Shown here: piece by piece, positions 13,619-49,893 of the stretch
How positions within the stretch are numbered: position 1 is the first letter of the stretch
Layout: every line of letters starts with the position of its first letter
Origin: a virus
Lineage: Duplodnaviria; Heunggongvirae; Uroviricota; Caudoviricetes
Reading direction: 5' to 3' (one strand)
DNA: 54,394 nt
Virus record (IMG/VR): IMGVR_UViG_2541047847_000004
The notes under the pieces: model-generated
What the model saw: the letters and a program-made list of their open reading frames with translations, nothing else
Told to the model about the DNA's origin: nothing
Database searches by the model: none
Made by a program: the position numbers and the translations under genes

Positions 13619-13793
13619 GTGTGCGTTTCTCCTGCTCTATCCTGTTTGCCTGACTGACCAGTAAGGGAATTTCACTGATCGGCATATTCAGCAATTCGAA
13701 AGGATTAATGCGCCAGTAACTGGCGCAGTCAAAGAAGCGATCAGTGAGGTATTCAGCCGTCAGGCCTGGAGGAAAAAACCGGCCACAAGCCAC
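13611..13793 (-). CDS. Tail assembly chaperone -1 frameshift extension
   Basis: ORF in the -1 frame overlapping the 3' end of the chaperone ORF; slippery site at 13772-13778 (gaaaaaa on + strand). Confidence 0.45.
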   Translation of the reverse strand: MACGRFFPPGLTAEYLTDRFFDCASYWRINPFELLNMPISEIPLLVSQANRIEQEKRTHG

Positions 13794-14029
13794 GCCGCTG
13801 CATTCAGGTCTGCCGGAGACATCTGGTCGACAGAGCTTTGCGGCACTTTCGCCAGCCGCACGATGTATTTCGATACCACATGCGCCAGAAGTCTGACGGA
13901 CTCATCCTGATTCATCTGGTAGGGATATCCCAGCTCGCGGACATCTTTCCCGGTGGGCTCATCAAACTCCAGTACGGAGAGTGTCTCGCCATGAGCGGTA
14001 ATCGGTTTCTTTAACTCAAGCTCTTTCAT
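13760..14029 (-). CDS. Tail assembly chaperone (frame-0 product)
   Basis: 89 aa between tail tube and tape measure genes; ends just after a T-TTT-TTC slippery heptamer. Confidence 0.6.
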   Translation of the reverse strand: MKELELKKPITAHGETLSVLEFDEPTGKDVRELGYPYQMNQDESVRLLAHVVSKYIVRLAKVPQSSVDQMSPADLNAAAWLVAGFFLQA

Positions 14030-14385
14030 TACTGGTAATCCCCTTCTTCACCGTGGAACTCAAGATCAACCGTGCCTTCTTCGGCATTATGGTTCGCTTC
14101 GCCGTGCAGCCAGGCAGACGACAGTACATAGACCTGACCGTTCGCCAGCTCGGCAGTGATTGTCATCTCATCAGACGAGGTGATTTTGTTCACCGGAAAA
14201 TTCTTCGGCACCTTGAAGGTCCCTTTGACATAAGGCGCACGGTGAGTTTCCTTGCGGTCCACTGAGCCGTCCAGGCCGATGATGTCATCATTGACCGTCC
14301 TGTTCATGGGCACCTCAATGCCGCCGGTCAGCGATAGCTGCTGACCGTCAATTTTGAAATAACAGGTTCCCCCGATACGGGCCAT
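14029..14385 (-). CDS. Tail tube protein
   Basis: 118 aa immediately downstream of the sheath gene. Confidence 0.7.
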   Translation of the reverse strand: MARIGGTCYFKIDGQQLSLTGGIEVPMNRTVNDDIIGLDGSVDRKETHRAPYVKGTFKVPKNFPVNKITSSDEMTITAELANGQVYVLSSAWLHGEANHNAEEGTVDLEFHGEEGDYQ

Positions 14386-25176: not shown

Positions 25177-25636
25177 TTACCACCCCGCCAGCCTCTTTGA
25201 ATCGGGCAATCAGGTCACCGATTTTATGTTCATACTGACCGTAACCAGCGCCCGGCAGTGAAGCCCAGATATTGCTGCAACGATCGATAGCCTGACGAAT
25301 ATCGCCGCGATCAATCATCGGTAAAGCGCCACGCTCTTTAATCTGCTGCAATGCCACAGCATCCTGGCTTTTTGGAGAGAAGTCTTTCAGCCCAAGCTGC
25401 TTGCGGTAAGCATCCCACCAGCGTGAAAGAAGTTGATAACGGCCTGCAGCTGTTGATTTGAGTTTGGGGTTTAGCGTGACAAGTTTGCGAGGGTGATCGG
25501 AGTAATCAGTGAATAGTTCACCACCGACAATAATATCATAACCGTGGTTACGTGTCGGTTGTCGCCCGTTATCCGTTCCTTCTGACCATGCCACCATATC
25601 GAGGAAAGCTTTACGCTGAGGATTAAGATTTTGCAT
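25160..25636 (-). CDS. Endolysin (lambda R-like lysozyme/transglycosylase)
   Basis: 158 aa, near-identical in pattern to lambda R (NQRKAFLDM.AWSEGTDNGRQ.TRNHGYD). Confidence 0.9.
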   Translation of the reverse strand: MQNLNPQRKAFLDMVAWSEGTDNGRQPTRNHGYDIIVGGELFTDYSDHPRKLVTLNPKLKSTAAGRYQLLSRWWDAYRKQLGLKDFSPKSQDAVALQQIKERGALPMIDRGDIRQAIDRCSNIWASLPGAGYGQYEHKIGDLIARFKEAGGVVNEVEL

Positions 25637-26027
25637 TTTTCACCCCTGTCAGTCGTTCCCAGAAGTACGTCAGTGCAACCGAACCCATCGCACCACTAAT
25701 CCCCGCTGTCGCGAGAATCATGTAAATACTGAATCCACTTTCGATGCTGATCAGGCCACCAATAACACCGGTGAATCCTGATACCACTATCTGAGCCAGA
25801 GCATTTATCCAACTCCACGTTGCTTTACTCTGCTTCACATCTATCAGGTAGCGGACCAGACCGCCCCAACCTGCGATGATCAGCAAAACGAGCCAGAACG
25901 CTCCAGCAAGATTCTCTTTTTCGTGCATATGAATAGCCGCAGTTTCGCCTCCGACAGAAAATCGGAGCGTGAAATGATATGTTGATTTATTATTAATTCG
26001 AAAATTACATTCTAATTCATCAGGCAT
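25623..26027 (-). CDS. Holin
   Basis: Three hydrophobic helices; probable true start at internal ATG 25928 (MHEKEN...). Confidence 0.65.
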   Translation of the reverse strand: MPDELECNFRINNKSTYHFTLRFSVGGETAAIHMHEKENLAGAFWLVLLIIAGWGGLVRYLIDVKQSKATWSWINALAQIVVSGFTGVIGGLISIESGFSIYMILATAGISGAMGSVALTYFWERLTGVKNAKS

Positions 26028-35887: not shown

Positions 35888-36014
35888 TTTCATTACTGCA
35901 AATGCCCCTGCGGGGGCATTTATGGAAACGTAATTGACTCAATAATCGCCGGATGGTGAGGGCTTTCTTTTACCAGAATTCAGCGCGGTGCAGCGCATAT
36001 ACGTGGAGAACAAA

Positions 36015-36539
36015 ATGTCATTTATTAAAACTTTTTCCGGGAAGCATTTTTATTATGACAGGATAAATAAAGACGACATCGTTATTAACGATATCGCGGT
36101 TTCTCTTTCAAATATCTGTCGCTTTGCAGGACATCTTTCACATTTCTACAGCGTCGCCCAACATGCGGTGCTTTGCAGCCAACTGGTACCGCAGGAATTT
36201 GCTTTTGAAGCGTTAATGCATGATGCAACAGAAGCGTATTGCCAGGACATCCCGGCGCCACTGAAACGCCTTCTTCCTGACTATAAACGGATGGAAGAAA
36301 AAATAGACGCCGTAATCCGTGAGAAATACGGGTTACCCCCGGTTATGAGTACGCCCGTGAAATATGCCGATCTCATCATGCTGGCAACCGAACGCCGCGA
36401 TCTCGGGCTTGATGATGGCTCTTTCTGGCCCGTACTGGAAGGTATCCCGGCAACAGAGATGTTCAAAGTTATTCCACTGTCGCCAGGCCATACCTATGGG
36501 ATGTTTATGGAACGCTTTAAAGAGTTAACTGAGTCGTAA
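36015..36539 (+). CDS. HD-domain phosphohydrolase (YfdR-like 5'-deoxynucleotidase)
   Basis: H...HD...E...D metal-binding pattern (FAGHLSHFYSVAQHAV...MHDATEAY...D); start at ATG 36015 with GGAGA upstream. Confidence 0.6.
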   Translation: MSFIKTFSGKHFYYDRINKDDIVINDIAVSLSNICRFAGHLSHFYSVAQHAVLCSQLVPQEFAFEALMHDATEAYCQDIPAPLKRLLPDYKRMEEKIDAVIREKYGLPPVMSTPVKYADLIMLATERRDLGLDDGSFWPVLEGIPATEMFKVIPLSPGHTYGMFMERFKELTES

Positions 36540-36647
36540 AAATCAGCACGTACGAATTCAAACTCTGCCATAAAAGAACATATAAGTAATTTATTAACAT
36601 ATAGATATAGGTTATATTACAAATTGAAAAATTATTGGAGAGCAACA

Positions 36648-37514
36648 ATGAATCAAAATCCATTCTCATTCTATGACTTTCTTGGATATTTAATACCAGG
36701 TGGTTTTTTTATCCTATTAATGTATTTCTGTGGTTTGACATTCGATCTAGATATTGTTATTGACTTAAGTGAATTACTCAGAGGTCAAAGTCAAATCTTT
36801 GGCATTTTGAACTACGCTTCAATAGTTATTATATCTTATATAGCTGGACATTTTATTTCTATCACGTCAGCATTTTTTATCGAAAAATACATGAATAAAG
36901 AATTAGGATATCCTTCCAAATATCTATTTAAAAAATTGATAGATACCTCAGAAAGCATTTGTAGCCCATCATGCGATGAGAGAAGCGCTGATAAAAAAAC
37001 AAAAATAAAGAATCGCATAATCAAATGCGTATTATGTCCAATAATACTATGGGATTTTATAACACAAAAACTATGTTATTCTCAATCTCTACCATTTCAT
37101 TTAGCTAATACAACATGGTTAATGATCAAAGAAGGTTATGAGAAAAAGTTCATAACAAATCGCCAATTATTACAAGATAAAAACGGACTTGATGATGATC
37201 TCTTCAGATTGGCATATCATTATGTTTATGAGTTTTCAAAACAACATCAAACAAAAATTCAAAACTATGTTGCATTATATGGTTTTTGCAGAAACATATG
37301 TTTAATCTTTATAATTTCATTTTGGGTATCAGTTCCAACCTTTATTTATCGATTATGTACTCATAGTGATTATCTTTATAGTTTACTTTCAATAATGCTT
37401 AGCTTTTTCTTCGTCTATGTTTTCTATGTTGGTTTTGTTAAATTTTATAGAAGATATACTTTAGAAGTATTAATGGCATTTGCTGTACTTCAAAGTAACG
37501 ACACTATTCGTTAA
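36648..37514 (+). CDS. Polytopic membrane protein of unknown function (AT-rich moron)
   Basis: 288 aa from ATG 36648 (GGAG upstream); at least four hydrophobic helices; markedly lower GC than flanking phage genes. Confidence 0.5.
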   Translation: MNQNPFSFYDFLGYLIPGGFFILLMYFCGLTFDLDIVIDLSELLRGQSQIFGILNYASIVIISYIAGHFISITSAFFIEKYMNKELGYPSKYLFKKLIDTSESICSPSCDERSADKKTKIKNRIIKCVLCPIILWDFITQKLCYSQSLPFHLANTTWLMIKEGYEKKFITNRQLLQDKNGLDDDLFRLAYHYVYEFSKQHQTKIQNYVALYGFCRNICLIFIISFWVSVPTFIYRLCTHSDYLYSLLSIMLSFFFVYVFYVGFVKFYRRYTLEVLMAFAVLQSNDTIR

Positions 37515-37516
37515 TA

Positions 37517-37762
37517 ATGTTGCTCCCGTGTGCAGACGGGATAATGGAGAAACGTATGCTGAACCTCGATTGTGTTCCTATCTCAACTTATTGCAAAGAA
37601 ACTGGCGAAACTCCTGAAGCAATAAACAAACGTGTACAGCGCGGTGTTTGGCGTGAAGGTGTTCAGGTTTTAAAGGTTGAAGGCGTTAAGGAGAGGTGGA
37701 TTGATCTTAGTGAGGTTGCAAAATGGGCCAGACAAAACTGCTCAAACTACCGCGCGGCGTAA
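37517..37762 (+). CDS. xis: Excisionase-like protein
   Basis: Small basic ORF directly upstream of and overlapping int; alternative start at 37556 (GGAG + 6 nt). Confidence 0.5.
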   Translation: MLLPCADGIMEKRMLNLDCVPISTYCKETGETPEAINKRVQRGVWREGVQVLKVEGVKERWIDLSEVAKWARQNCSNYRAA

Positions 37763-38895
37763 CAATCAGGAAACACCGCCAGGGAGAAACGATCAATATA
37801 ACTTTCACCTACAAAGGAGTTAGATGTCGTGAGCCGCTTTCCAATCTGGAAGTAACACCAAAGAACATTAAATACGCCGAGCGTACACTCGGCGAAATCC
37901 ATAATAAGATCGAAAGGGGAACATTCATTTATGCAGAATATTTTCCCCGTTCTGCTCGTTTGAAAATTTTTGGTAATGCTGCTGCAGGCAAAACGGTAAA
38001 GGTGTACCTGGACGAATATCTTGAAATCTGCGAAACAAGAAAACTTTCACCCTCTACGATTGGTGGCTATAAAAAATGCCGTAGTGCGTTAGCCTCACTT
38101 CACATTTGCCCTGCAAGTGAATTAACACCAGCAACCCTGAAAGCGTGGATTCAAAGCCAGAAAACAACCTTAAAAACCATTCGCAACCAGTTATCTTTCC
38201 TACGGTCAGCACTTGATGAAGCCGTGACCGATGGGGTACTTCAAATTAACCCCGTATCGTTAGTAACAGCTTCGCGCTACCAAAGTGATAAGTCAGAAGC
38301 AGAAAGCAGCTATGTGGTTGATCCGCTATCACCAGCAGAAGTTGATGCATTACTAGCAGCAGCCGGAAACAAACAATGGGAAAATCTGTTCCGGTTCGCC
38401 ATACATACAGGCCTGCGTAGTTCTGAATTATGTGCCCTACGATGGCATGATATCGACTTTGTTGGAAAAACAGCCCATGTTCAGAGCGCAAGTGTTGTCG
38501 GAGTTATCAAAGGAACAAAGACAAAAGCCGGTACCCGTAAAGTTGAACTGACTGAAGAAGCAATGTTGGCGTTGATAAACCAGAAGCCATTTACATTCAT
38601 GAAGGATGCTACTGTCTTTGAAGATCCAAAGACCAATAAACCCTGGGCAAGTGCTGATGCAATTAGGAAAAAAGCATGGGTGCCAACATTGCGAAAAGCA
38701 GGTATTCGTTACAGAAACCCATATCAAACCAGGCATACATTCGCCACCAGCCATATCAGCCGGGGAGCAAACCTGTTTTGGCTTGCGGCTCAAATGGGCC
38801 ATAAAGGGCCTGAAATGTTATTCAGGCACTATGGACAATACTTGAAAGAGTATGATGGGAGGGCAAGTATCAAGGATAAAAAGGCTTTATTTTAA
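37723..38895 (+). CDS. int: Tyrosine integrase (prophage)
   Basis: 390 aa; C-terminal R...H..R...Y catalytic pattern (HTFATSHISRGANLF...LGHKGPEMLFRHYGQY). Confidence 0.85.
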   Translation: MGQTKLLKLPRGVTIRKHRQGETINITFTYKGVRCREPLSNLEVTPKNIKYAERTLGEIHNKIERGTFIYAEYFPRSARLKIFGNAAAGKTVKVYLDEYLEICETRKLSPSTIGGYKKCRSALASLHICPASELTPATLKAWIQSQKTTLKTIRNQLSFLRSALDEAVTDGVLQINPVSLVTASRYQSDKSEAESSYVVDPLSPAEVDALLAAAGNKQWENLFRFAIHTGLRSSELCALRWHDIDFVGKTAHVQSASVVGVIKGTKTKAGTRKVELTEEAMLALINQKPFTFMKDATVFEDPKTNKPWASADAIRKKAWVPTLRKAGIRYRNPYQTRHTFATSHISRGANLFWLAAQMGHKGPEMLFRHYGQYLKEYDGRASIKDKKALF

Positions 38896-39504
38896 GTCAT
38901 TATGCCAATCGTCTACTGTTTGAAACCAAATTTTTAACCTTTGCATAAAGGTACGATCCTTTTTGGGAGGGTGGTACCTTTGAAAAGAAGTATGTAACGC
39001 TTCGATAACTCCCATACAAGCATCAATTACTTCTTGTGCTTTAACCGGGCGATCGGTATCTGAAAGCTTGTGAGCGACCTCACAATCCAGAGTTGCTTTC
39101 TCTAGTACAGATGAGAACACCTCGTCAGGTATATACAGTCCTCTGCTTTCCAAAATGCAAATCAGTTTGGAAACTTGTTGAGCTTTAGCCAAGATAGTTA
39201 ACAAGTATGAAACAGAAGCCTTTGTTCTATCCTTTTGCAACCTTAACAATCGATGCTTTGATGCTCTAATTTTAGGTTGAGTTGTCTGACTGAGCCAATA
39301 GTTAGAAGAAATATCAGAAATTTCAATAACTAACTTTGAAATAGCATCAATAATTGATTTCGATTCAGAACGTGTCGCCAGTTTTACAGAATTATTGTAC
39401 GCAACTCGCCATCCAATGAAAACTAAGCAGACGCTAACTACTGTGATACACCACGAATACTGTCCTATTTGTGCTACTAATGACATTGGTTCCGTACTGA
39501 TCAA
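38887..39504 (-). CDS. Membrane-anchored protein, third gene of GHKL operon
   Basis: 205 aa, single N-terminal TM helix (WCITVVSVCLVFIGW) then largely helical soluble part; 10-nt gap to upstream gene; 3' end overlaps int 3' end. Confidence 0.45.
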   Translation of the reverse strand: MISTEPMSLVAQIGQYSWCITVVSVCLVFIGWRVAYNNSVKLATRSESKSIIDAISKLVIEISDISSNYWLSQTTQPKIRASKHRLLRLQKDRTKASVSYLLTILAKAQQVSKLICILESRGLYIPDEVFSSVLEKATLDCEVAHKLSDTDRPVKAQEVIDACMGVIEALHTSFQRYHPPKKDRTFMQRLKIWFQTVDDWHNDLK

Positions 39505-39514
39505 CTATCGCCTC

Positions 39515-39841
39515 TTATACTCTTTCTGGTTGTGCTAAATCAATAAATTTATCAATCTGTTCTTTGTAGAACGGAACATCACTTTTTATAATCAAACGTG
39601 CTTTAACGTTGGCTTTAGGTATCCCTTCCTTACGGATGAGACCTCCAAACGCCTCTTCTAAGAAAGAGGAACCAACACCCAGTGCTATACCGCGAAAATC
39701 AACCACAATCTCCTGTTCAGTACCCTTCAGCGCAGGCACCAAAAACTCTCTACGAAATCTTTCCGCACTGTGTGGGCTATCCGTTGTGTAACGTCCGAAA
39801 GGTGTTCTGGAGAACTCCTTCGCTATGACGATATTTCTCAT
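39515..39841 (-). CDS. Small soluble protein, possibly STAS-like (DUF4325-type)
   Basis: 108 aa; 4-nt gap from upstream GHKL gene; family guess from memory of sequence pattern, unverified. Confidence 0.4.
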   Translation of the reverse strand: MRNIVIAKEFSRTPFGRYTTDSPHSAERFRREFLVPALKGTEQEIVVDFRGIALGVGSSFLEEAFGGLIRKEGIPKANVKARLIIKSDVPFYKEQIDKFIDLAQPERV

Positions 39842-39845
39842 AAAA

Positions 39846-40757
39846 TCATCTCCTGGGAACCAGCGACCATTGTAGTAAAGTACCCGGTATGTACTCAGCT
39901 AGCTTCTCACATCGAGGACTACTGTCATTAGAATTATAGCTATAACGAGCCCTTCCTGTTAGTATCAGAAGTGTCTCATTATCCTCACAACCTGCCCCAA
40001 TAGGTCTCTTGATATCTTCAGAGCCATTTCCCCGTCCGGAACCAACAAAGCGGGATTCCCCTACTAACATAGCTCTTTCCACAGAAGATACTTCGTTTTG
40101 AATGCTATGACCATCACCATTAGGCACGAAACTTCTATAAATCCCCAATCCAAGGTCACAAACGATAAAAACGACTTTATTTTCATCACGATTGAACCAA
40201 GCGCACTGCCACCATCGTTTACCTTTGAGAAGCTGAATATCTGACTCGAACCCCTCATCTTCATACGCATGATGAGAAACATTGAGCAAAGCTTCACTAA
40301 TCGCTGTCAGCAGTAAGCCTAACTGTTCATTATTAAGCAGAGCACTTTTCTGCAGCATGAGTACTGTTTCAACAATATGCTCGTAAGGTTCGACAGCTGA
40401 CTGAAAGTATCGTTCCTCCCTCGTAAGTGCATTCAGTTTCTCTTCTGTGCCAGCAAGCAAAGCACGAGCAAGTCCAGTACCAACGATCCATCTATGCCCA
40501 GATGGGTTATCATCCTTTTTAGGCCATTTAAAACGTATAAAATTAGGGTCCCGGGTTAAAAATTGAGCTCTATTTACTATGGCAAAGAACAGTACCGATG
40601 CCGCAGCTGAGGCAAATTTTACCTTGGACAAATCAACTATAACTCGACCTTTATTTTTTACTCCAATCGATTCAATCGAGTTGATGAAGTTCAATGTCCC
40701 AGCCCTAGAATCATCTGAGTAAATGCAAAATTTGCTTGGGGGTACCAGTATGGTCAT
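39846..40757 (-). CDS. GHKL-superfamily ATPase (histidine-kinase-like ATP-binding domain) with unassigned N-terminal region
   Basis: N-box SEALLNVSHHAY, G1 box VCDLGLGI, G2 box GSGRGNG in order in the C-terminal half; no HisKA/dimerisation domain or receiver visible. Confidence 0.55.
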   Translation of the reverse strand: MTILVPPSKFCIYSDDSRAGTLNFINSIESIGVKNKGRVIVDLSKVKFASAAASVLFFAIVNRAQFLTRDPNFIRFKWPKKDDNPSGHRWIVGTGLARALLAGTEEKLNALTREERYFQSAVEPYEHIVETVLMLQKSALLNNEQLGLLLTAISEALLNVSHHAYEDEGFESDIQLLKGKRWWQCAWFNRDENKVVFIVCDLGLGIYRSFVPNGDGHSIQNEVSSVERAMLVGESRFVGSGRGNGSEDIKRPIGAGCEDNETLLILTGRARYSYNSNDSSPRCEKLAEYIPGTLLQWSLVPRR

Positions 40758-41125: not shown

Positions 41126-42319
41126 GTGGCACGTACAACACGCCCTCTTACTAACACTGAACTATCACGTGCTAAAGCAACTGAAAAGGATCTAACGCTA
41201 CATGATGGTGATGGGCTTTTTCTACTCATAAAAACGAACGGAAGGAAGTTGTGGCGTTTCCGATACCAGAAGCCTGTATCAAAACAGAGAACCATGATTA
41301 GTTTAGGAACGTTCCCCGCCCTATCTCTGGCTGAGGCCAGAAACGTGCGTGCTGAGTATCTTTCCTTATTAGCCCGGGGTATTGATCCACAAACATACAG
41401 TAAGCAAGTCTCAGAACATCAACAGATTGCGATTGATAGTATTTTTTCAAAAGTTGCCACAAATTGGTTTGCCATAAAAAGCAATAACGTCACACCTGAT
41501 TATGCAAAGGATATATGGCGATCCTTAGAGAGGGACATTTTCCCTGCTATCGGTGAGATTCCTGTTCAGGAAATAAAAGCCCGCACATTAATTGAAGCCC
41601 TAGAGCCAATTAAAGCTCGTGGGGCACTTGAGACTGTTCGTCGTTTAGTACAACGTATTAATGAAATTATGATTTATGCTGTTAATACTGGTCTGATAGA
41701 TGCTAACCCTGCTTCAGGCATTGGTATGGCATTTGAAAAACCTAAAAAACAGCACATGCCAACGCTTAGACCTGAAGAATTACCGAAACTCATGCGTTCA
41801 ATAACAATGTCTAATTTATCTATTCCAACTCGTTGTTTGATTGAATGGCAACTCTTAACACTTGTACGCCCTGCAGAAGCTTCCAATGCAAAGTGGATAG
41901 AGATCGATTTCGAAGCTAAACTATGGATAATACCAGCCAATAGAATGAAGGCAAAGCGGGAACATATTGTTCCATTATCACTTCAGACATTAGATATTCT
42001 TGAAATTATGAAGCCAATCAGTTCACATCGAGAATATATTTTTCCTAGCAGGAATAACCCCAATCAACCAATGAACAGTCAGACGGCAAATGCAGCCTTA
42101 AAGCGCATCGGTTATGGTGGTAAGTTGGTTGCACACGGACTGCGTTCGATAGCAAGTACAGCAATGAATGAAGCTGGTATAAATCCAGATATTATCGAAG
42201 CAGCACTTTCCCATTGTGATAAAAATGAGGTTAGAAGAGCATATAATCGAACAACCTACTTGGAACAAAGAAAAGAGCTTATGAATTGGTGGGGTAGTTT
42301 CATTTCAAAAAACAAATAA
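41126..42319 (+). CDS. int: P4-type tyrosine integrase
   Basis: 397 aa from GTG; N-terminus MARTTRPLT...LHDGDGLFLLIKTNGRKLWRFRY typical of P4-family integrases next to ssrA. Confidence 0.9.
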   Translation: MARTTRPLTNTELSRAKATEKDLTLHDGDGLFLLIKTNGRKLWRFRYQKPVSKQRTMISLGTFPALSLAEARNVRAEYLSLLARGIDPQTYSKQVSEHQQIAIDSIFSKVATNWFAIKSNNVTPDYAKDIWRSLERDIFPAIGEIPVQEIKARTLIEALEPIKARGALETVRRLVQRINEIMIYAVNTGLIDANPASGIGMAFEKPKKQHMPTLRPEELPKLMRSITMSNLSIPTRCLIEWQLLTLVRPAEASNAKWIEIDFEAKLWIIPANRMKAKREHIVPLSLQTLDILEIMKPISSHREYIFPSRNNPNQPMNSQTANAALKRIGYGGKLVAHGLRSIASTAMNEAGINPDIIEAALSHCDKNEVRRAYNRTTYLEQRKELMNWWGSFISKNK

Positions 42320-42329
42320 GGATATAGTG

Positions 42330-43445
42330 ATGAATAATAAAGATTTTCCATGCAAAGCCTCAAATATCTATGATAAAAATATAAATTTTTTATTTGGCTC
42401 AGGCTCCTCTGCTTCATATATTCCTACTCTCTATCTAGATAAAAACACTACTTATGAAACATTACTTACACATGAGGATTGTGAGGGTGTCAAGGACTTC
42501 ATATTATGTTCTTATTTCAATAATATCATTAGAAAAACATTTTGTGTTAAACCTAATAGTGAAGACAAAAAATATAATTCTACTTTAGCAAACTATAGCT
42601 ACTTTATTGATGAACTAATCAAATTATTAGAGAAAAAAGGGGCAAATCAAATAAGGCGAGCGAATATTTTTACAACAAATTATGATCTTTTTTTCGAAAC
42701 TGCGGCTGATGATATTTTAAATAATAAAACATTTCATTTCAATGACGGTGGTCTAGGTTTCAAAAGCCGGAAATTGAACATTAGTAATTTTCATATTACT
42801 GCTTGGCATCAAGGTACGCATGATATGTACAAACATGAAATTCCAACAGTAAACTTAATAAAAATGCATGGTTCTGTTTCTTGGTGTAGAGATATTAATG
42901 AAACGATTAGTATTAATTACACTCAAGAAGAACCACCAAAGTTTAGACTAGATACAAAAAAAGACATTAATGATTTAGTCACCACCTTAAACGAAACAAG
43001 CGATAATCTCGTTAGTTATTTAAATTTATCTACAAGCGATCAAGAAACACTTCAAGAATTTAAATCTTATTACAACAACTTAGCTATAGTTAGCCCAACT
43101 AAAGAAAAATTTTCTGAAACTGTTTTTCAACAACATTATTACCAATGTTTACGATTGCTAAGTTATGAATTAGAGAAACCACAAACTGTATTAATTTGTT
43201 TTGGTTTTTCTTTTCAAGATGAACACATACGTGAGATTATAAAAAGATCATTAAGTAACCCTACTCTTAAGGTCTTTGTTTTTTGCTACTCAAAATCCAG
43301 CATGGAAAGTATACAGCACATTATCAATGACCAACGAATAACCTATATTCTTCCTATAGAAGATGATCATACAATTTCATTTAAACCGTTTATAGATAGA
43401 GTATTTAGATCTGAACACGGAGATTGGATTACATGGAAGAACTAA
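42330..43445 (+). CDS. SIR2-family NADase-like protein (defence pair with HerA)
   Basis: FLFGSGSS (Rossmann GxGxS), TTNYD and KMHGSVSW motifs characteristic of SIR2 domains; AT-rich; start at ATG 42330. Confidence 0.7.
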   Translation: MNNKDFPCKASNIYDKNINFLFGSGSSASYIPTLYLDKNTTYETLLTHEDCEGVKDFILCSYFNNIIRKTFCVKPNSEDKKYNSTLANYSYFIDELIKLLEKKGANQIRRANIFTTNYDLFFETAADDILNNKTFHFNDGGLGFKSRKLNISNFHITAWHQGTHDMYKHEIPTVNLIKMHGSVSWCRDINETISINYTQEEPPKFRLDTKKDINDLVTTLNETSDNLVSYLNLSTSDQETLQEFKSYYNNLAIVSPTKEKFSETVFQQHYYQCLRLLSYELEKPQTVLICFGFSFQDEHIREIIKRSLSNPTLKVFVFCYSKSSMESIQHIINDQRITYILPIEDDHTISFKPFIDRVFRSEHGDWITWKN

Positions 43446-45205
43446 TTGTTGGTAATGTTACCCAAATAAAGGGCACAACAGTAAGGGCCAAAATCAATCA
43501 TGACTTTTTTCAGTCAACATACTTTCATAAAGGTAAAATACTACGAGGTATCTCTATAAATGAATTTGTTTTGATTAAAAAAGGTTATCACGATATCGTC
43601 GGAAAGATTATTGGTGAAGAAATTGTTGAAAACATCAATATTAGAAGCGATGAAATTGAACAAAAAAAATATGACCGTTTTGTAGAACTGAATATTTTAG
43701 GGTATTTTTTTGAGAGTTCATTTTATTCCGGTATAAAATTTTTACCAATGATAAATGACAGCTTACACTTAATTTCAGACGAGAAGATATCAGAAATATA
43801 TAAGTTTAGCAAAAACACTAAAGCACCTTTAATAAACATAGGGAAATCTATGTTAGAGGAGTTGCCAATTAACATACCAATAAATGGTATTTTTAATTCA
43901 CACATAGGCATATTTGGAAACACTGGAAGTGGCAAGTCCAACACTCTTGCAAAACTTTATCACTCTCTAATAAACCTTATAACAACAAAAGAAAGAGTTA
44001 TATCAAAATCAAGTTTTGTTTTGATTGATTTTAATGGTGAATACAGCACATTTGCTACGTCATTTCCAGATTTGTGCGAACAAGTCAATCTCAACACAAA
44101 GAATTCCGGTGATAAACTAACTTTCACTGATGATGAATTTTGGGATGATGAATTATTATCGGTATTGTTTTCTGCAACTGAAAAAACTCAAAAGCCATTT
44201 CTTAGTCATTTAATTAAAAATAGAGAAAAATATAATGGTAAATTGGAGGATTACTTACAAACAACTATCCACAGTATGTTTTCTCCTAATCCACACAGGG
44301 AAACAATAAATTTATTAAAAAGCCTTGCCCCTTACTTTTCAGAGAGAGCACAGGGTAAAATACTTGAAGAGTTATCACAATTCTCATGGCATTCTGGGCA
44401 AAATAAGTATTTGCACTCAAAATACAACTTCATTGATAAAATGGAAGATGCTTTACAGGCTTTAGATGCAACATATAAATCCAAGTTTAAGTTAAACAGC
44501 GTTTTTGATGAAGTTGCAATCCGATCTATTCTACAACTAATTAATTCAGTATCACGTAATTATGTACAATATGATCATATATATCCGCTAATTAATAAAA
44601 TAACGGCAATGACTCCTGCCCTATCCAAAGTAATTAATATCAGAAACGAAACAAAAAATAAAAAACCTATATATATAGTGTCATTAAAAGAGTGCAATCA
44701 ATTAATCAAAAAAACCATTCCAATGATGCTTGCAAAATGTTCATTCTTAGAGCACAAGTCATCTAAAAATACAAAGGAAAGCTTCCACCTAATTATAGAT
44801 GAAGCACACAACATATTGTCTGAAACATCTGTCAGAGAGGCGGAAACATGGAAAGATTATAGGCTTGAGTTATTTGAGGAAATAATAAAAGAGGGAAGGA
44901 AGTTTGGGTTCTTCGTTACAATTTCGAGTCAACGACCTTTTGACATCTCTCCCACAATTGTTTCCCAACTTCATAATTATTTTATTCATCGATTAGTGAA
45001 CGAAAATGATTTGTTTTTGTTAAAAAATACTTTAAGCACCCTTGATGCGGCATCAAGATCACTAATTCCAACACTTCCTCCTGGTGGGTGTATAGTTTCA
45101 GGAACAGCTTTCCACACCCCATTACTTGTTCAAATCGACAGATTAGCTGAGGAAAATGCTCCTAACAGCGATACTCTTGATTTAGAAAAATTGTGGGATA
45201 TTTAA
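43433..45205 (+). CDS. herA: HerA-like ATPase
   Basis: Walker A GNTGSGKSN and Walker B HLIIDEAHN; overlaps SIR2 stop; start at ATG 43433 (track TTG 43424). Confidence 0.75.
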   Translation: MEELIVGNVTQIKGTTVRAKINHDFFQSTYFHKGKILRGISINEFVLIKKGYHDIVGKIIGEEIVENINIRSDEIEQKKYDRFVELNILGYFFESSFYSGIKFLPMINDSLHLISDEKISEIYKFSKNTKAPLINIGKSMLEELPINIPINGIFNSHIGIFGNTGSGKSNTLAKLYHSLINLITTKERVISKSSFVLIDFNGEYSTFATSFPDLCEQVNLNTKNSGDKLTFTDDEFWDDELLSVLFSATEKTQKPFLSHLIKNREKYNGKLEDYLQTTIHSMFSPNPHRETINLLKSLAPYFSERAQGKILEELSQFSWHSGQNKYLHSKYNFIDKMEDALQALDATYKSKFKLNSVFDEVAIRSILQLINSVSRNYVQYDHIYPLINKITAMTPALSKVINIRNETKNKKPIYIVSLKECNQLIKKTIPMMLAKCSFLEHKSSKNTKESFHLIIDEAHNILSETSVREAETWKDYRLELFEEIIKEGRKFGFFVTISSQRPFDISPTIVSQLHNYFIHRLVNENDLFLLKNTLSTLDAASRSLIPTLPPGGCIVSGTAFHTPLLVQIDRLAEENAPNSDTLDLEKLWDI

Positions 45206-45225
45206 TATCGCTACGCGCAGTGCTT

Positions 45226-45262
45226 TCCCCGCCTCGCCCGCACGCTTTGCGGGGCGGTTTTA
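45226..45262 (+). terminator. Intrinsic terminator after herA
   Basis: ccccgc...gcgggg stem followed by cggtttta; two further GC-rich hairpins at 45286-45309 and 45340-45374. Confidence 0.5.
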
Positions 45263-45402
45263 ATGCAGTTGCACTGACACGCTCAGACCGCGCCGGGAAT
45301 GGCGCGGTCTGCAGAAAATGAGGCAGGGAAACGCATGCAAAGCCATGCACCTTATCGATGCATGGCTTTTTTCAGTAAAAACAGGCGGATTTTCGGGAAA
45401 TT

Positions 45403-45975
45403 TTACACAGACTGACGTGATGCCAGTTGCGCACTTTTACGCGAAAAAATCATGTTCTGCGCAGGGGTAAATTTTTCACGGCTGTCGTCCACCGAAGCCG
45501 CGTCAGGCCTGAATCCGATGGTCGTTAAAATGTCGCTATCCTGTGCGGAATAATTAATTTTTTCCCCCTTCGCAAGCCAGGACAGAAGGGCTTCACGCAG
45601 GGCATCTGTGGCACGCTGTATGGCACAGTTTCGGGCAATGGCCGTCAGCTCACTGTAGCCCATCAGCTCCGGTGCCAGTGCCGCCGCCAGTGCTGTGCCG
45701 TGCTGCTGCATAAAATCATTCAGCCGGTCGCGGATGCTGATGTGCTGAACGGCTTCATGCGAACGAATATAACGACCAGCGGCCTGATTCACCTGCCATT
45801 TTCTGACTTCGATAATATTGCGTAATTCGTCCAGGCGACTGACGTTTCTGCCTTCTCCTGACAGAAGCCGCAGATATTCCTGTTCGGCCGCTGCCAGCTC
45901 ATTTTTGCGTTGCAGCCATGCTGCTTTGTTATTCTGACAGGTGTCAAAGGCCTGCTGTAAGGCTGTGCTTTCCAT
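45403..45975 (-). CDS. psu: Polarity suppression protein Psu
   Basis: 190 aa, same length and position as P4 Psu in the sid-delta-psu block. Confidence 0.75.
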   Translation of the reverse strand: MESTALQQAFDTCQNNKAAWLQRKNELAAAEQEYLRLLSGEGRNVSRLDELRNIIEVRKWQVNQAAGRYIRSHEAVQHISIRDRLNDFMQQHGTALAAALAPELMGYSELTAIARNCAIQRATDALREALLSWLAKGEKINYSAQDSDILTTIGFRPDAASVDDSREKFTPAQNMIFSRKSAQLASRQSV

Positions 45976-46048
45976 CGTTATCTCTTTCTCATCATGCTGA
46001 AGAATAAAAATACGGTGTGCGGCGACGGCCGGTGTTAACCGGCAGCCC

Positions 46049-46549
46049 TCATTCCAGACGCAGCGAATATGATTGTGTTTTTAAGCGTACTGGCGGCAGT
46101 TCCTGTTTTTCATGCAGGCTTTCTGCCAGTTCGTCCGGCGTGACCGGGCGGACAATGAAACGGTTGATGGTCTGAAGCGTTTTAAACACCAGACCACAGC
46201 CCGGATCCGTGCACACATAAAAACGCTCGGTGACTTCCTGAGACAGACGCCGCGATGTTCTTGACAGTGCAAGGCCTTTACATCTCCGACAACAATATCC
46301 GGTAACAAGCATTCTTTTCGGGCGTTTCATACTGCCGGAGGCTGACGTCAGTGAATCGCGGTATCTCTGTTTGCCTGAAATGTATTCCATTCCTGAATCT
46401 TTACTGTCAGAGAAAAAGCTTTCACTCGCTTCAAATGTCGCAGAGCAATAAATATTCCGGCACTGTGCAATCATTATCTTGGTGCCATCGTCCATGAAAT
46501 GTGCGCGGCGGGTGTGAGCAACATGACCACACGACGGGCAGTAAATCAT
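46049..46549 (-). CDS. delta: Delta (Ogr/Delta zinc-finger late transcription activator)
   Basis: 166 aa with two CxxC...CxxC units (CPSCGH...C...C and CCRRCKG...CTDPGC). Confidence 0.75.
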   Translation of the reverse strand: MIYCPSCGHVAHTRRAHFMDDGTKIMIAQCRNIYCSATFEASESFFSDSKDSGMEYISGKQRYRDSLTSASGSMKRPKRMLVTGYCCRRCKGLALSRTSRRLSQEVTERFYVCTDPGCGLVFKTLQTINRFIVRPVTPDELAESLHEKQELPPVRLKTQSYSLRLE

Positions 46550-47280
46550 GACAGCAGTCCTCTGGCCTTAAGCACTGCTCCCTGCTGGTCTATTTTGTCC
46601 TGCCACACCTTGCGCTGTGCCGGTGTGCCTGCCACCTCATAATCCATGTGAGGAAGTGTTGCCGCTGACAGTCCGGTCAGCCGGAGAACCGGCTCGCCGG
46701 TGAGGCTGATTTGCATCTGTTTAATTTTCTGTTCCAGCGATGATTTCACCTGCTGCATGACAGCCTTTTCCGGTGCGACGTAGCCCTGATGGCCGGTGGT
46801 GTTGGCGAGCGGATTTTCCTGTACCAGAATGCTCAGATGCATTGCCCGGACAAGCGCCTCACAGGTTTCATTCAGGGCGTGTTCCAGCTCATGCTCTGCA
46901 TACAGACTCAGAAGGTGATGATGTGCCTTCCGGTAGGCGGTGGCCGTGCTGTCACACGCCCCTTTCAGGCGTTCGCGTTCAAAATTCAGCACCACGGCCA
47001 GATTGTCATATTCCTGTACCAGTTCCCGGCGTGCCACGCGCTCAATGTGGCGCTGTTTCAGCTCGTCGCTCAGGACACCACCGGCTGCACGAAAGGCCGT
47101 GCGCCAGTCGTCAGCGTCGTTTCCGTCGGCCTGCGCCAGCGCATTTTTTTCCTGCTCTGCCCGTTCAATGGCCGTGACGGTCTCATCCATCAGGCGGGCG
47201 TTCTCAAGATGGGCGGCTCTGGCCTTTTCCAGTTGTGCCAGTGCGGGTTGCAGATATTCAGGGATGGTGTTGTCAGACAT
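46546..47280 (-). CDS. sid: Capsid size determination protein Sid
   Basis: 244 aa from ATG 47280; upstream of delta with overlapping stop/start. Confidence 0.7.
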   Translation of the reverse strand: MSDNTIPEYLQPALAQLEKARAAHLENARLMDETVTAIERAEQEKNALAQADGNDADDWRTAFRAAGGVLSDELKQRHIERVARRELVQEYDNLAVVLNFERERLKGACDSTATAYRKAHHHLLSLYAEHELEHALNETCEALVRAMHLSILVQENPLANTTGHQGYVAPEKAVMQQVKSSLEQKIKQMQISLTGEPVLRLTGLSAATLPHMDYEVAGTPAQRKVWQDKIDQQGAVLKARGLLS

Positions 47281-47449
47281 TTTCCGGCTCCTCGTCACTT
47301 CAGGTTAAGAAAATTGTGACGTACACCGGACAACAACACGACGCATTGCAGATGTGCCAGCCCTGACACAGGAGACTCATCCTCAGACCGGCAAGCCAGG
47401 AAAAGGTCGCAGGAAAAACCGGCTTACTGTTTGTTTTTTTATATTTTAC

Positions 47450-47553
47450 TGTTCACCTCTGTTCACCATAAGAAAAAAGACAAGTAATACAGTAAGTTAA
47501 ATGGTGAACAATCGCAGTAATGACTGTTCACCGTCTGTTCACCACTGTTCACC
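47450..47553. repeat. TGTTCACC iteron cluster (P4 crr/ori-type alpha-binding sites)
   Basis: Six TGTTCACC octamers (five direct, one inverted) within ~100 bp. Confidence 0.6.
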
Positions 47554-47880
47554 CGTTGATGGGCTTTTTGTGCTGTTTATTACTGTTTGTTTTTATTAAT
47601 TCGCCGGGAATGAATAAGAAAAAACGATTTGTATTTCACTATAAAAATTACGAATTGCTTTAAGTGGCTTTAAATGACTTTAAGTGGAGATGAACAAAAA
47701 ACACACAAGCATTATAAGACTGCCGGAACAAATCCCCCCTGTTGCGTCTGCTGAAAATATTCACAAAATAAAGCGCTACCCGAAGCCGGACGGACTTATC
47801 CGGTGCTGTATGGACATTAACGAGGTAGCCCGATGCAAGCTGTTTTTTCTTCCCCGTCTCCCGCCCCTGTGACGCCACTG

Positions 47881-48099
47881 ATGCCGCTGCCGGACATCAC
47901 GCAGGAGCGTTTTTTACGTCTGCCGGAAGTGATGCACCTGTGCGGCCTGTCACGCTCGACCATCTATGAACTCATCCGTAAGGGGGAATTTCCGCCGCAG
48001 GTGAGTCTTGGCGGTAAAAATGTGGCCTGGCTGCACTCTGAAGTCACTGCATGGATGGCCGGGCGCATTGCCGGACGCAAACGGGGGTACGACGCATGA
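47881..48099 (+). CDS. AlpA-family transcriptional regulator (Vis-like)
   Basis: [31 protein letters not shown] typical of AlpA; start set to ATG 47881. Confidence 0.6.
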
Positions 48100-48497
48100 T
48101 GATGCCCGCTCTGCAAAAACGCCCTTTTTCTGGCTTGCCTTTTTCCGGCATTTGCGGATATAGTTTTTCCGCTGCCGCAAAATCGGCAGCCGGGCGTGGA
48201 AACCCGAGCAATTCACAGGCGACATATGACGCGCCATGCGTCTTTTTTTGTGTCGCAATCAACGCCACAGAGCGCCAGATTATGGTGTGGTGTGTGGTCA
48301 GTCGTGCAGATGGCATTCCGTGCATCCTGCCCGCGTCCGCTCATTATGCCGCAGAGTCAATGGTAGCTCAGGCGGGGCAGCCTCCGGGCTGGCCGGTATC
48401 CTGTGAAGCCGGTATTTCCACCCCCGTCTGGGCTATCGCCATCGAGCGTGGAAACTCCGGCGATAGCGTTATTTGCTATTCACAGGAGGCTGCCATC

Positions 48498-48695
48498 ATG
48501 GCTACAACCCTTACCCCCTCACACCCTGAATTTGTCTTTGTGTTTGCGGCTGTCCGTCGCGCAGACCGTCATCCCCGTATCTGTATGCTTCGCACCGTCG
48601 CCGGTGATGAACGCAGTGCCCGCCGTTCCCTTGTCCGTGACTATGTGCTCTCCCTTGCTGCCCGTCTGCCGGTGGTGGAGGTGTCCCGTGCGTAA
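48498..48695 (+). CDS. Icd-like small protein
   Basis: 65 aa from ATG 48498 (AGGAGG upstream); in-frame with a longer track ORF that I consider an artefact. Confidence 0.4.
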
Positions 48696-48975
48696 TAAAA
48701 AAGCCCCTCAGACCGTCTCAGCGCGTCATGACGCCCGTGAACACCTCAGCATTGAGGCTTACCATAAGCTCAACCGCGCCAGCGCCGTATCCCGGTTTGT
48801 TGGGGGTGATTTGATTCACCGTGAACTCTCCGGCCTGCATCAGCTCTACATTCCGCATATTTTCAGCTACCTGAATGAAGATATTGATTTTGTGCTGAAT
48901 GAGCTGAAAGCCAAAGGCCTGTGCCGCGATTTTCTCGCCCAGCAGAAAGACCGGGGAGACAGGACGCATGTTTGA
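48688..48975 (+). CDS. Hypothetical 95-aa protein (epsilon-like by position)
   Basis: GTG start with GGAGG 7 nt upstream, overlaps preceding stop; position equivalent to P4 epsilon. Confidence 0.35.
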
Positions 48976-49423
48976 TTTTCCCCAGCCCGGTGAGATTTAC
49001 CGTTCTGCCGGTTTTCCCGATGTGGCCGTGGTCGGCATTCTGGAAGACGGTATTCCGTGGGAAATGCCGTACCGCTGCCCGGACATTGTCTGGAACCCGT
49101 ACCGCCGTAAATTCAGTATCCTTGTGCGTATCCTCGCTGACGGGCGCACCACAGACATCCCGCTGGGGCGTTTTCTGCGGGAATTTACCTGTGACCGTCC
49201 TGACCTGTTTAAACGCAGCCCCGTAAACCGGCATGCGGTACTGAAAGAAATGGCCGGAGACCCGGAATTACAGAAATGGCGGGAGAAATATCTGGATATT
49301 TACCCGCAGGACACTGTTCCGGCCAGCCGGGCGGCACCGGTGGCGCGGGAATGGCGGGAAATTCCCCGCACGGAGCCTGACCCGGAAATCACCCCGGATA
49401 ACAGTTACCGCAATTATCTGTAA
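48968..49423 (+). CDS. Hypothetical 151-aa protein (P4 orf151-like by size and position)
   Basis: Translationally coupled to upstream gene; upstream of alpha. Confidence 0.45.
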   Translation: MFDFPQPGEIYRSAGFPDVAVVGILEDGIPWEMPYRCPDIVWNPYRRKFSILVRILADGRTTDIPLGRFLREFTCDRPDLFKRSPVNRHAVLKEMAGDPELQKWREKYLDIYPQDTVPASRAAPVAREWREIPRTEPDPEITPDNSYRNYL

Positions 49424-49558
49424 TTAAAAAACGACACCCGAAAAATTAAATGTGCGTATTCGCGCAGGGATACGCACGTCTTCAGGAGACGCAGATATGC
49501 CTTATCAGTTAATGCAACCGGCACGGAATGCAGTCATCTGTCACAGGGAGGAAAGCAA

Positions 49559-49879
49559 ATGAAAACACCCTTACCGCCCGTCTTACGCGCTGCCCTTTAC
49601 CGTCGCGCTGTCGCCTGTGCCTGGCTGACCGTGTGCGAACGTCAGCACCGCTACCCGCATCTCACCCTTGAGTCACTGGAGGCGGCCATCGCCGCTGAGC
49701 TGGAAGGCTTTTATCTGCGCCAGCACGGTGAGGAAAAAGGGCGTCAGATAGCCTGTGCCCTGCTGGAAGATTTAATGGAATCCGGCCCCCTGAAGGCCGC
49801 GCCGTCGCTGTCCTTTCTCGGGCTGGTTGTGATGGATGAACTCTGTGCCCGTCACATAAAAGCGCCGGTACTGCACTGA
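49559..49879 (+). CDS. Hypothetical 106-aa protein
   Basis: ORF with AGGGAGGA RBS immediately upstream of alpha. Confidence 0.4.
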
Positions 49880-49893
49880 AGGAGAACAACACC

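Follow-up and report, generated by a model that had tools for sequence, protein, structure and literature searches.

Background

The family to which Csx27 belongs is said to be an expansive one: Makarova et al. 2019 reportedly described its members as proteins with four transmembrane (TM) segments, predicted to be single-stranded DNA (ssDNA) channels and linked to competence, ubiquitin-system and WYL-HTH genes. Csx27 itself is an accessory membrane protein of the type VI-B1 CRISPR-Cas13b loci, with four predicted TM segments, that represses interference by Cas13b in Escherichia coli (10.1101/092577). The mechanism by which it acts has been an open question since 2017. A second relevant setting is the gpA-gpQ region of P2, an experimentally supported hotspot of anti-phage systems (PMC9122126), in which a pair of proteins termed 'DUF4760' and '4 TM' is arrangement #3, with 1102 occurrences, in Table S5B of Rousset et al. 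2022 (PMC9122126). Here we analyze a gene from the IMG/VR virus record IMGVR_UViG_2541047847_000004, a stretch of 54,394 nucleotides of Caudoviricetes DNA (hereafter the window). The gene lies in an E. coli prophage just upstream of its excisionase and integrase genes (xis and int) and encodes a four-TM inner-membrane protein of 288 amino acids (aa) that, as profile comparisons suggest, belongs to a stand-alone branch of the Csx27 superfamily.

The gene is already catalogued, as a RefSeq hypothetical protein, as phrog_12528 and in Table S5B of Rousset et al., without a name, a Pfam model or a structure. As far as the literature could be searched, the link to Csx27 is undescribed for a branch that is prophage-borne, partner-less and enlarged; the 'expansive family' of Makarova et al. 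may include such sequences.

Evidence for a stand-alone branch of the Csx27 superfamily

Scans of the protein against Pfam, NCBIfam and PADLOC recovered no curated family above threshold and no Pfam match. Nevertheless, the PADLOC hidden Markov model (HMM) of Csx27 aligns with it collinearly, residues 6-268 corresponding to model positions 4-188 of 206 (E=1.4e-5). A phmmer search against 1.84 billion representatives gathered a family of 659 50%-identity clusters at E<=1e-3; the stricter limit of E<=1e-10 leaves 369, and almost every member is a full-length protein of 260-310 aa. When 128 members were aligned (alignment A1), the same PADLOC model matched 89 of them (best E=2.2e-10), a second PADLOC model for a type VI-B TM protein, 'tm_4', matched 27, and the independent NCBIfam Csx27 model (NF040557) matched 20 at E<=0.01 (best E=2e-6). 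The score of the prophage protein itself against the NCBIfam model is 14.9 bits (E=0.02, residues 5-43), as against an equivalog cutoff of 65 bits, and no cas13b, other cas gene or CRISPR array was found among its flanking proteins, the neighbours being yfdR, xis and int. Because the scores fall far under the cutoff and both cas13b and a CRISPR array are lacking, we file the protein as a member of a distinct stand-alone branch that these HMM matches appear to place within the superfamily, and not as Csx27 proper. The neighbourhoods of its homologues point the same way: in 78 loci from one-genome-per-species contigs (L011-L090), the competence, ubiquitin-system and WYL-HTH partners reported for the Csx27 family were not among the most frequent Pfam families encoded at the +/-1 and +/-2 positions.

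An earlier note on this DNA, made from the letters alone, had found no motif in the protein. The family alignment revises this, with strong motifs that were not recognisable to that reader in a distant relative of Csx27. Six residues are invariant in A1, namely Y14, Y64, G67, E79, R215 and K265, and some 28 others show conservation of 90% or more. Together they form five family motifs: NPFSxYDFLGYxxPG at the N-terminus, YxxGH..S..SS..E in TM2, GYPS, HYxxE....H..K.QNYVALYGFxR before and into TM3, and KFYRRxxLE after TM4. Longer members owe their size to extra loop length or to an additional TM pair; no added globular domain or domain fusion was seen in them. In one subgroup (P0216, P0243, P0249, P0254, P0265 and P0269) the additional pair lies between TM3 and TM4, giving six TM segments in total; the profile matches the TM3/TM4 region of these proteins twice, and all the cytoplasmic-face motifs are retained.

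Start codon, composition and selection

The open reading frame (ORF) on the + strand spans 36624..37514. Its ATG at 36648 is the start annotated by RefSeq in 205 complete E. coli genomes, a Shine-Dalgarno GGAG stands 7 nucleotides (nt) ahead of it, and the family alignment and the homologues open with M-x-QNPFS, matching this ATG; since annotation, GGAG position and homologue N-termini agree, we take it to be the true start. The GC content of the gene is 28.3% (21% at third codon positions), versus 49.4% for the window. The lowest-GC 867-bp stretch of the window begins at 36580 and overlaps the gene, and merely 0.2% of same-size windows fall below the gene's own in GC (z = -2.7). Both the GC content much lower than that of the neighbours and the gene's own GGAG ribosome-binding site, which the earlier note had pointed out, are thus borne out.

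The ratio of nonsynonymous to synonymous substitution rates (dN/dS) is 0.19 against the 85% allele of the gene and 0.16 against the 78% allele. The differences between alleles cluster in residues 95-182 and in the turn between TM3 and TM4, whereas the motifs at the N-terminus, before TM3 and in the C-tail are free of them. The gene is real and under purifying selection.

Predicted architecture and topology

Hydropathy delineates four TM segments, at about 10-38, 50-78, 207-237 and 242-267, and a weaker hydrophobic hairpin at 120-143. An AlphaFold2 model built with the family alignment is all-helical, with a mean predicted local distance difference test score (pLDDT) of 89.7 and a predicted template modelling score (pTM) of 0.89, its helices including residues 8-31 and 52-86; the several hydrophobic helices of the earlier note are accordingly recovered as four TM segments. 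Hydropathy, the AlphaFold2 helices and positive-inside charge counts over the 128 members together predict an N-in/C-in protein whose two periplasmic loops are very short and whose TM2 and TM3 are separated by a large cytoplasmic domain of ~125 aa. Lysine plus arginine residues number about 15-16 per sequence over residues 80-183 and about 18 over residues 80-211, as against 1.4 and 0.3 in the two outer loops, which measure 19 and 4 residues and vary more than any other part of the protein.

In the N-terminal motif NPFSFYDFLGYLIPG Y14 is invariant, and P5, F6, S7, Y9, D10, F11, L12, G13, P17 and G18 are at least 90% conserved. The TM2 motif, YxxGH..S..S(A/S)..E, holds the invariant Y64, G67 and E79 together with H68 and S74, which are conserved at the same level. 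The central domain includes the GYPS motif (residues 87-90) and a hydrophobic helical hairpin with a near-invariant P131, and is elsewhere the fastest-diverging part of the protein. It is followed by the pre-TM3 motif, in which R215 is invariant and H191, H200 and N206-G212 reach at least 90%, while in the C-terminal motif KFYRRYTLEVLM K265 is invariant and F266, E273 and M276 pass the same threshold. The strongly conserved D10, Y14, Y64, H68, E79, H191, E195, H200, K203, N206, R215, K265 and E273 all lie in the N-terminal, TM2, pre-TM3 and post-TM4 segments, and every conserved motif is predicted to lie in a segment assigned to the cytoplasmic side (Table 1).

An exchangeable cassette in a CPS-53/KplE1-like prophage

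The host element is a CPS-53/KplE1-like E. coli prophage, and the gene stands at the end of its early-left operon, preceded by homologues of yfdP, yfdQ and yfdR that are themselves downstream of a CI-like repressor. Directly downstream of the gene are the excisionase and the tyrosine integrase, so that the position upstream of xis/int given in the earlier note is correct. Sibling E. coli prophages that have yfdR and xis/int in common with the window match it as far as 36534 and again from 37525; in place of the cassette thus delimited, the siblings hold 610 bp with a yfdS-like DUF551 gene and a 72-aa ORF. A search of the cassette ends found no direct or inverted repeats and none like those of insertion sequences or transposons, and exchange therefore presumably proceeds via recombination in the conserved flanks. 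The left junction falls 5 nt ahead of the yfdR stop codon (window 36520-36539), and because it cuts in before the stop, the C-terminus of the HD-domain 5'-deoxynucleotidase differs from, and is slightly shorter than, that in the siblings. In the sibling prophages, yfdR measures 537 nt and overlaps the next gene.

Among 5426 complete E. coli genomes, 205 carry the gene, versus 3009 with yfdQ/yfdR, and in 176 genomes its DNA is 99-100% identical. Carriers include UTI89, S88, APEC O1, IHE3034 and ATCC 11775, and the product is always annotated as 'hypothetical protein'. The gene is polymorphic, dispensable prophage cargo with exact boundaries. A 99.3% identical copy was observed at 13509-14372 of NZ_CP148393.1, a 44.6-kb E. 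coli record filed as a non-mobilizable plasmid, which may be an excised or mis-assigned prophage copy or a phage-plasmid.

About 70 nt ahead of the ATG are kept between alleles that stand behind different upstream genes. That this leader travels with the gene hints at autonomous expression, which we regard as possible, the promoter role of the leader being inferred from sequence; a consensus scan for a sigma-70 promoter or an intrinsic terminator beside the gene yielded nothing convincing. A short hairpin, CCCGTGTGCAGACGGG, lies at 37528-37543, between the stop codon of the gene and the ribosome-binding site of xis, in the flank common to the sibling prophages, where it reads CCCGTGTGCAGCGGG. 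It is not a typical terminator, as no T-run follows it, and may be part of the regulation of xis/int.

Genomic contexts of the homologues

The 78 loci span Gamma-, Beta- and Deltaproteobacteria, many Bacteroidota, Firmicutes, Chloroflexi, Acidobacteria and Gemmatimonadota, and the majority of family members are chromosomal rather than in phages. In all but one of these loci (77/78) the GC content of the family gene is below that of its +/-8 kb flanks, with a mean drop of 10 points and a drop of up to 27 in Pseudomonas. The drop persists even in genomes of 60-69% GC, and the Phe/Ile/Tyr/Asn/Lys-rich composition of the protein explains it only partly. Neither clustering by BLAST nor a Pfam/PADLOC scan of the +/-1 and +/-2 neighbours identified a conserved partner gene in the 78 loci. 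Tight neighbours in the chromosomal loci include the S subunit of a type I restriction-modification system, an MvaI/BcnI restriction endonuclease, PIN_8 and patatin, and other chromosomal loci lie amid N6_Mtase/HsdM genes or toxin-antitoxin pairs; overall, the recognisable neighbours are mixed, comprising restriction-modification components (Methylase_S, N6_Mtase, HsdM_N, Eco57I, ResIII and the MvaI/BcnI endonuclease), PIN_8, patatin, MADS genes, toxin-antitoxin pairs and integrases. Further neighbours are glycosyltransferases, a polysaccharide deacetylase and housekeeping genes such as nrdAB.

Among mobile elements, megablast against the phage collection gave no match, and tblastn matched 9 phage and 4 plasmid records. 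In prophages of Enterobacter and Klebsiella, homologues with 50-52% identity immediately precede an xis/int pair in which neither the integrase nor the excisionase is related to its counterpart in the window, and in IMG/VR an integrase starts 211-285 nt downstream of the gene in 42 of 72 loci. A homologue with 40% identity occupies the nin region of a Serratia lambdoid prophage, and one with 42-48% identity, which matches the Csx27 HMM at E=9.5e-6, is found in P2-like phages, within the gpA-gpQ region, where a one-TM DUF4760 protein precedes it. This latter protein is 165 aa long with a single N-terminal TM helix, and its gene lies on the same strand 39 nt upstream of the homologue (6464-6961 in L097; also 4464-4958 in L095). 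The DUF4760 gene is likewise AT-rich (35% GC versus 51% for the locus) and has no PADLOC match; in GenBank ON470623 its ORF is unannotated, and a minus-strand ORF is called instead.

The earlier note had further proposed that the gene is a moron, that is, accessory cargo of the prophage. This is well supported: it agrees with the presence or absence of the gene, as a 990-bp cassette, among prophages that are nearly identical elsewhere, with its foreign composition, and with the placement of its homologues in accessory slots of several unrelated temperate phages, including the P2 gpA-gpQ hotspot. The function that the note had suggested, superinfection exclusion or abortive infection, is plausible, and its interpretation as a whole is partly supported.

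Possible functions of the protein

We propose that the protein is an anti-phage membrane effector, functioning in abortive infection or entry exclusion, and give this proposal the same weight as all other explanations taken together. Within it we tentatively favour a single-protein sensor-effector of the abortive-infection type, which would perturb the membrane upon infection, and place second, as unlikely, a constitutive block of genome entry or genome handling at the inner membrane. On the anti-phage proposal as a whole, a lysogen would be protected against other phages by a single-protein membrane effector, whose variable cytoplasmic cap might act as the sensor of an infection cue. The conserved polar cluster at the inner leaflet, probably in an oligomer, would then open a path for ions or solutes or engage the incoming nucleic acid at the membrane, and the superinfecting phage would be halted during genome entry or immediately afterwards. 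The tiny and variable periplasmic loops speak against an exclusion that works from outside the inner membrane. By extension, it is conceivable, though we put it forward with reserve, that the stand-alone Csx27-like proteins are a widespread and unrecognised family of single-gene membrane immunity proteins directed against phages or DNA entry, spread by temperate phages and defence islands, in which the conserved polar cluster at the cytoplasmic face would serve as a working site in common with CRISPR-associated Csx27.

Several observations weigh against an anti-phage function. Firstly, the 'DUF4760 + 4TM' pair of P2-like phages was catalogued but is not among the systems that were cloned (PMC9122126), and the pair is unmentioned in the 2026 follow-up to Rousset et al. 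Moreover, the commonest arrangement in the P2 hotspot is a ParM/StbA partition module, so that not all of its cargo is defensive (PMC9122126). Secondly, no match was found to the PADLOC-DB v2 models of validated defence systems, including superinfection exclusion (Sie) and abortive infection (Abi) proteins such as RexB, SieA and SieB; up to seven family members (<=7) weakly match the unvalidated candidates PDC-M48A and PDC-S47. The literature searched for Csx27-like proteins and the Csx27 family, DUF4760 and the RefSeq accessions gave no functional data and no paper that mentions the accessions. Thirdly, the effect of Csx27 on Cas13b interference in E. coli is repression and not enhancement (10.1101/092577), and only a minority of the chromosomal homologues adjoin recognisable defence genes, the others being next to housekeeping or polysaccharide genes. 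Fourthly, polar residues that are invariant across phyla resemble an enzyme or a specific binding site more than a typical pore-forming Abi effector. Finally, with neither a promoter nor a terminator consensus beside the gene, read-through together with xis/int in lytic growth is conceivable.

The alternative closest to the favoured effector is constitutive superinfection exclusion, a sub-case of the same anti-phage proposal to which, as said, we assign a low probability. Here a protein at the cytoplasmic membrane would block, divert or degrade incoming phage DNA, in keeping with the prediction that proteins of the Csx27 family are ssDNA membrane channels, with the stand-alone gene that has no sensor partner, with the basic and aromatic cluster conserved at the cytoplasmic face and with a prophage position typical of sie genes. 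However, the known entry-exclusion proteins are small, phage-specific and narrow in distribution, whereas this family extends from Proteobacteria to Bacteroidota, Firmicutes and Chloroflexi, and its periplasmic loops of 19 and 4 poorly conserved residues offer little surface to an injection apparatus. A phage-specific entry blocker therefore fits poorly with the short loops and the cross-phylum conservation, and this subfamily lacks the contexts with competence genes that have been described for the Csx27 family.

Transcription raises another, improbable, alternative. The gene shares its strand with yfdPQR and xis/int in what seems to be a single early transcription unit, terminators being absent on both sides of the gene, and the protein could be an accessory for the lytic cycle or for counter-defence, produced along with the early-left operon and xis/int. 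As such it might modulate the host membrane or nucleic-acid uptake, or damp host immunity as Csx27 damps Cas13b, whose interference is repressed in E. coli when Csx27 is co-expressed; that sibling prophages do without the gene would also suit a dispensable accessory. On the other hand, E. coli lacks a type VI CRISPR system on which such repression could act, a phage-only anti-defence role leaves the mostly chromosomal family unexplained, and the leader conserved with the gene hints at autonomous expression.

The invariant polar residues and the polysaccharide neighbourhoods bear on a further possibility, lysogenic conversion of the envelope, which we consider quite improbable: the protein, as an enzyme or carrier in the membrane, would work on a lipid-linked glycan, a lipid or another envelope component, and phage resistance would arise indirectly through modification of a receptor. 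The invariant His, Glu, Asp, Arg and Lys residues could suggest catalysis or specific binding, the gene is AT-rich, and its int/att-adjacent position recalls that of the serotype-conversion genes gtr and oac. Some homologues do lie in polysaccharide clusters, with glycosyltransferases of families 1 and 2, WecG, an epimerase and a polysaccharide deacetylase, and in one Acholeplasmataceae contig and one Herbinix contig the same-strand spacing is tight. Yet such contexts make up about 10% of the loci and are themselves variable low-GC regions, and the conserved site is predicted to face the cytoplasm, whereas the known phage O-antigen modifiers work in the periplasm. Neither similarity to Gtr, Oac, Wzy or an envelope enzyme of Pfam/NCBIfam nor a fold match was detected; there was no Pfam match to the GtrA, GT2 and acyltransferase-3 families, and the GtrA/GtrB partners are not present among the neighbours. 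Homology to a known transporter, which the earlier note had named as a finding that would speak against its interpretation, was not seen either, in Pfam, NCBIfam, PDB sequences or fold comparisons. A role as a holin or in lysis was also considered and rejected, since the position is wrong and a LydA-type holin is encoded at 25623-26027.

Lastly, although the annotation reads 'hypothetical protein' only, and long ORFs are possible in AT-rich DNA even if stop-free frames are few by chance, a non-functional gene, decaying or spurious within an AT-rich spacer, has a next to negligible probability, being effectively refuted by full-length homologues in the hundreds, from many phyla and with invariant residues, by dN/dS values of 0.16-0.19, by the confident AlphaFold2 prediction and by the 99-100% conservation of the gene in 176 E. 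coli genomes.

Other cargo in the window

The window is dense in defence-type cargo, in slots comparable to that of the gene. Just past the integrase lies a minus-strand trio of genes, the first of which overlaps the 3' end of the integrase; none of the three has a PADLOC match. Sibling prophages with the same integrase hold DarT/NADAR (DarTG) or an AAA ATPase in this place, and in UTI89 the chromosomal gene glaH comes next after the trio. This looks like a second variable cargo slot, and the trio itself is a possible defence candidate of the partner-switching type. A P4-like satellite (window 41126-52227) stands in tandem with the prophage and carries in its int-psu hotspot a SIR2 and HerA pair with strong PADLOC matches. 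Strain 1EC213 shares the prophage and has, in the satellite slot, a response-regulator-receiver protein and an ATP-binding protein.

Table 1. Positions in the window of the gene, its predicted protein segments and the surrounding features
Feature	Position	Strand	Remarks
AT-rich swap-in cassette, 990 bp (gene plus 108-bp leader)	36535..37524	+	Homology breaks relative to sibling prophages; low GC
Leader, possible cassette-borne promoter region	36540..36647	+	-10-like TATATT at 36614-36619; GGAG at 36637-36640
Coding sequence, 288 aa, four-TM inner-membrane protein	36648..37514	+	Predicted stand-alone Csx27 superfamily member; RefSeq WP_001075212.1 'hypothetical protein'; phrog_12528
N-terminal cytoplasmic/interface motif NPFSFYDFLGYLIPG (residues 4-18)	36657..36701	+	Alignment A1, 128 members
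TM1 (10-31), variable periplasmic loop (32-51), TM2 (52-79)	36675..36884	+	Hydropathy, AlphaFold2, conservation, charge
Central cytoplasmic domain (residues 80-183)	36885..37196	+	Rich in Lys and Arg; allele differences concentrated here
Pre-TM3 motif D.FR..YHY..E....H..K.QNYVALYGF.R (residues 184-215)	37197..37292	+	Family conservation
TM3 (212-237), periplasmic turn of 4-5 residues (238-242), TM4 (243-264)	37281..37439	+	Hydropathy, AlphaFold2, charge
C-terminal cytoplasmic motif KFYRRYTLEVLM (residues 265-276)	37440..37475	+	Family conservation
Left flank: yfdR-like HD-domain 5'-deoxynucleotidase	35988..36539	+	Last codons changed by the cassette junction
Right flank: excisionase (phrog_2917)	37556-37762	+	
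Right flank: tyrosine integrase	37723-38895	+	
Trio: 205-aa protein with N-terminal TM segment (phrog_30059); 108-aa STAS-like DUF4325 protein; 303-aa protein	38887-40757	-	303-aa protein with weak HATPase_c_2 (SpoIIAB-like kinase) match
P4-like satellite integrase	41126-42319		
SIR2	42327-43445		int-psu hotspot of the satellite
HerA	43424-45205		int-psu hotspot; PADLOC E=1e-192
Psu	45403-45975	-	
Ogr/Delta zinc-finger protein	46049-46549	-	
Alpha-type primase-helicase	49894-52227		

Comparison with known systems

The arrangement of TM1-TM2, a large cytoplasmic domain and TM3-TM4 is shared with the MotA, PomA and ExbB stators and with ZorA of the Zorya system, and chains of PomA and MotA are indeed the top rows of a Foldseek search of the PDB. 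None of these matches reaches significance (E>1, probability <=0.16, TM-score about 0.2), and unlike the stators, the prophage protein has neither a MotB-like partner nor shared motifs; the resemblance is topological only.

Small size, several membrane spans, an inner-membrane location and an origin in prophages or defence loci are also features of lambda RexB, of KwaA of the Kiwa system and of Csx28 of type VI-B2 loci. The Csx28 pore has been shown to stop infection through the membrane (10.1101/2021.11.02.466367), and RexB and KwaA are thought to do so. RexB is the most similar in setting, being prophage-borne with an equal TM count. Nevertheless, no sequence or fold similarity to any of the three was detected. 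They act with a partner (RexA, KwaB and Cas13b, respectively), whereas the prophage protein has none, and its family is far more conserved, with invariant polar residues of an enzyme-like kind.

Closer is the P2 pair, the second protein of which is a homologue with about 42% identity over 286 aligned columns, the same length class and motifs and a match to the Csx27 HMM; it is likewise AT-rich phage cargo in a variable slot. The window differs in lacking a DUF4760 gene (a tblastn search with the DUF4760 protein gave no match in it) and in that its phage is lambdoid and CPS-53-like, with the gene in a yfdR-xis slot and not in the gpA-gpQ region of a P2-like phage. The gene is a common cargo of prophages in extraintestinal pathogenic E. 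coli strains (UTI89, S88, APEC O1 and IHE3034), and its P2 relative takes part in the third most frequent arrangement of a defence hotspot. A defensive function, if true, would add a compact single-gene membrane system.

The closest comparison is with Csx27 itself. Both proteins have four predicted TM helices arranged in two pairs, and the PADLOC match between them is nearly full-length and collinear, the NCBIfam match being weaker and centred on the N-terminal motif. The prophage protein is about 80 residues longer, because its cytoplasmic domain between TM2 and TM3 is larger, and, in contrast to Csx27, it stands alone, apart from cas13b and CRISPR, and is carried by temperate phages of Enterobacteriaceae. 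The family that it represents is large, occurs in many phyla, is highly conserved, is structurally unlike anything solved and has no Pfam entry. Even if it has no part in defence, the invariant residues at its cytoplasmic face still point to a membrane activity worth identifying. If the proposed immunity function is true, the E. coli prophage gene would be a tractable model for the membrane role of Csx27, and would provide the first handle on its mechanism in a genetically easy host.

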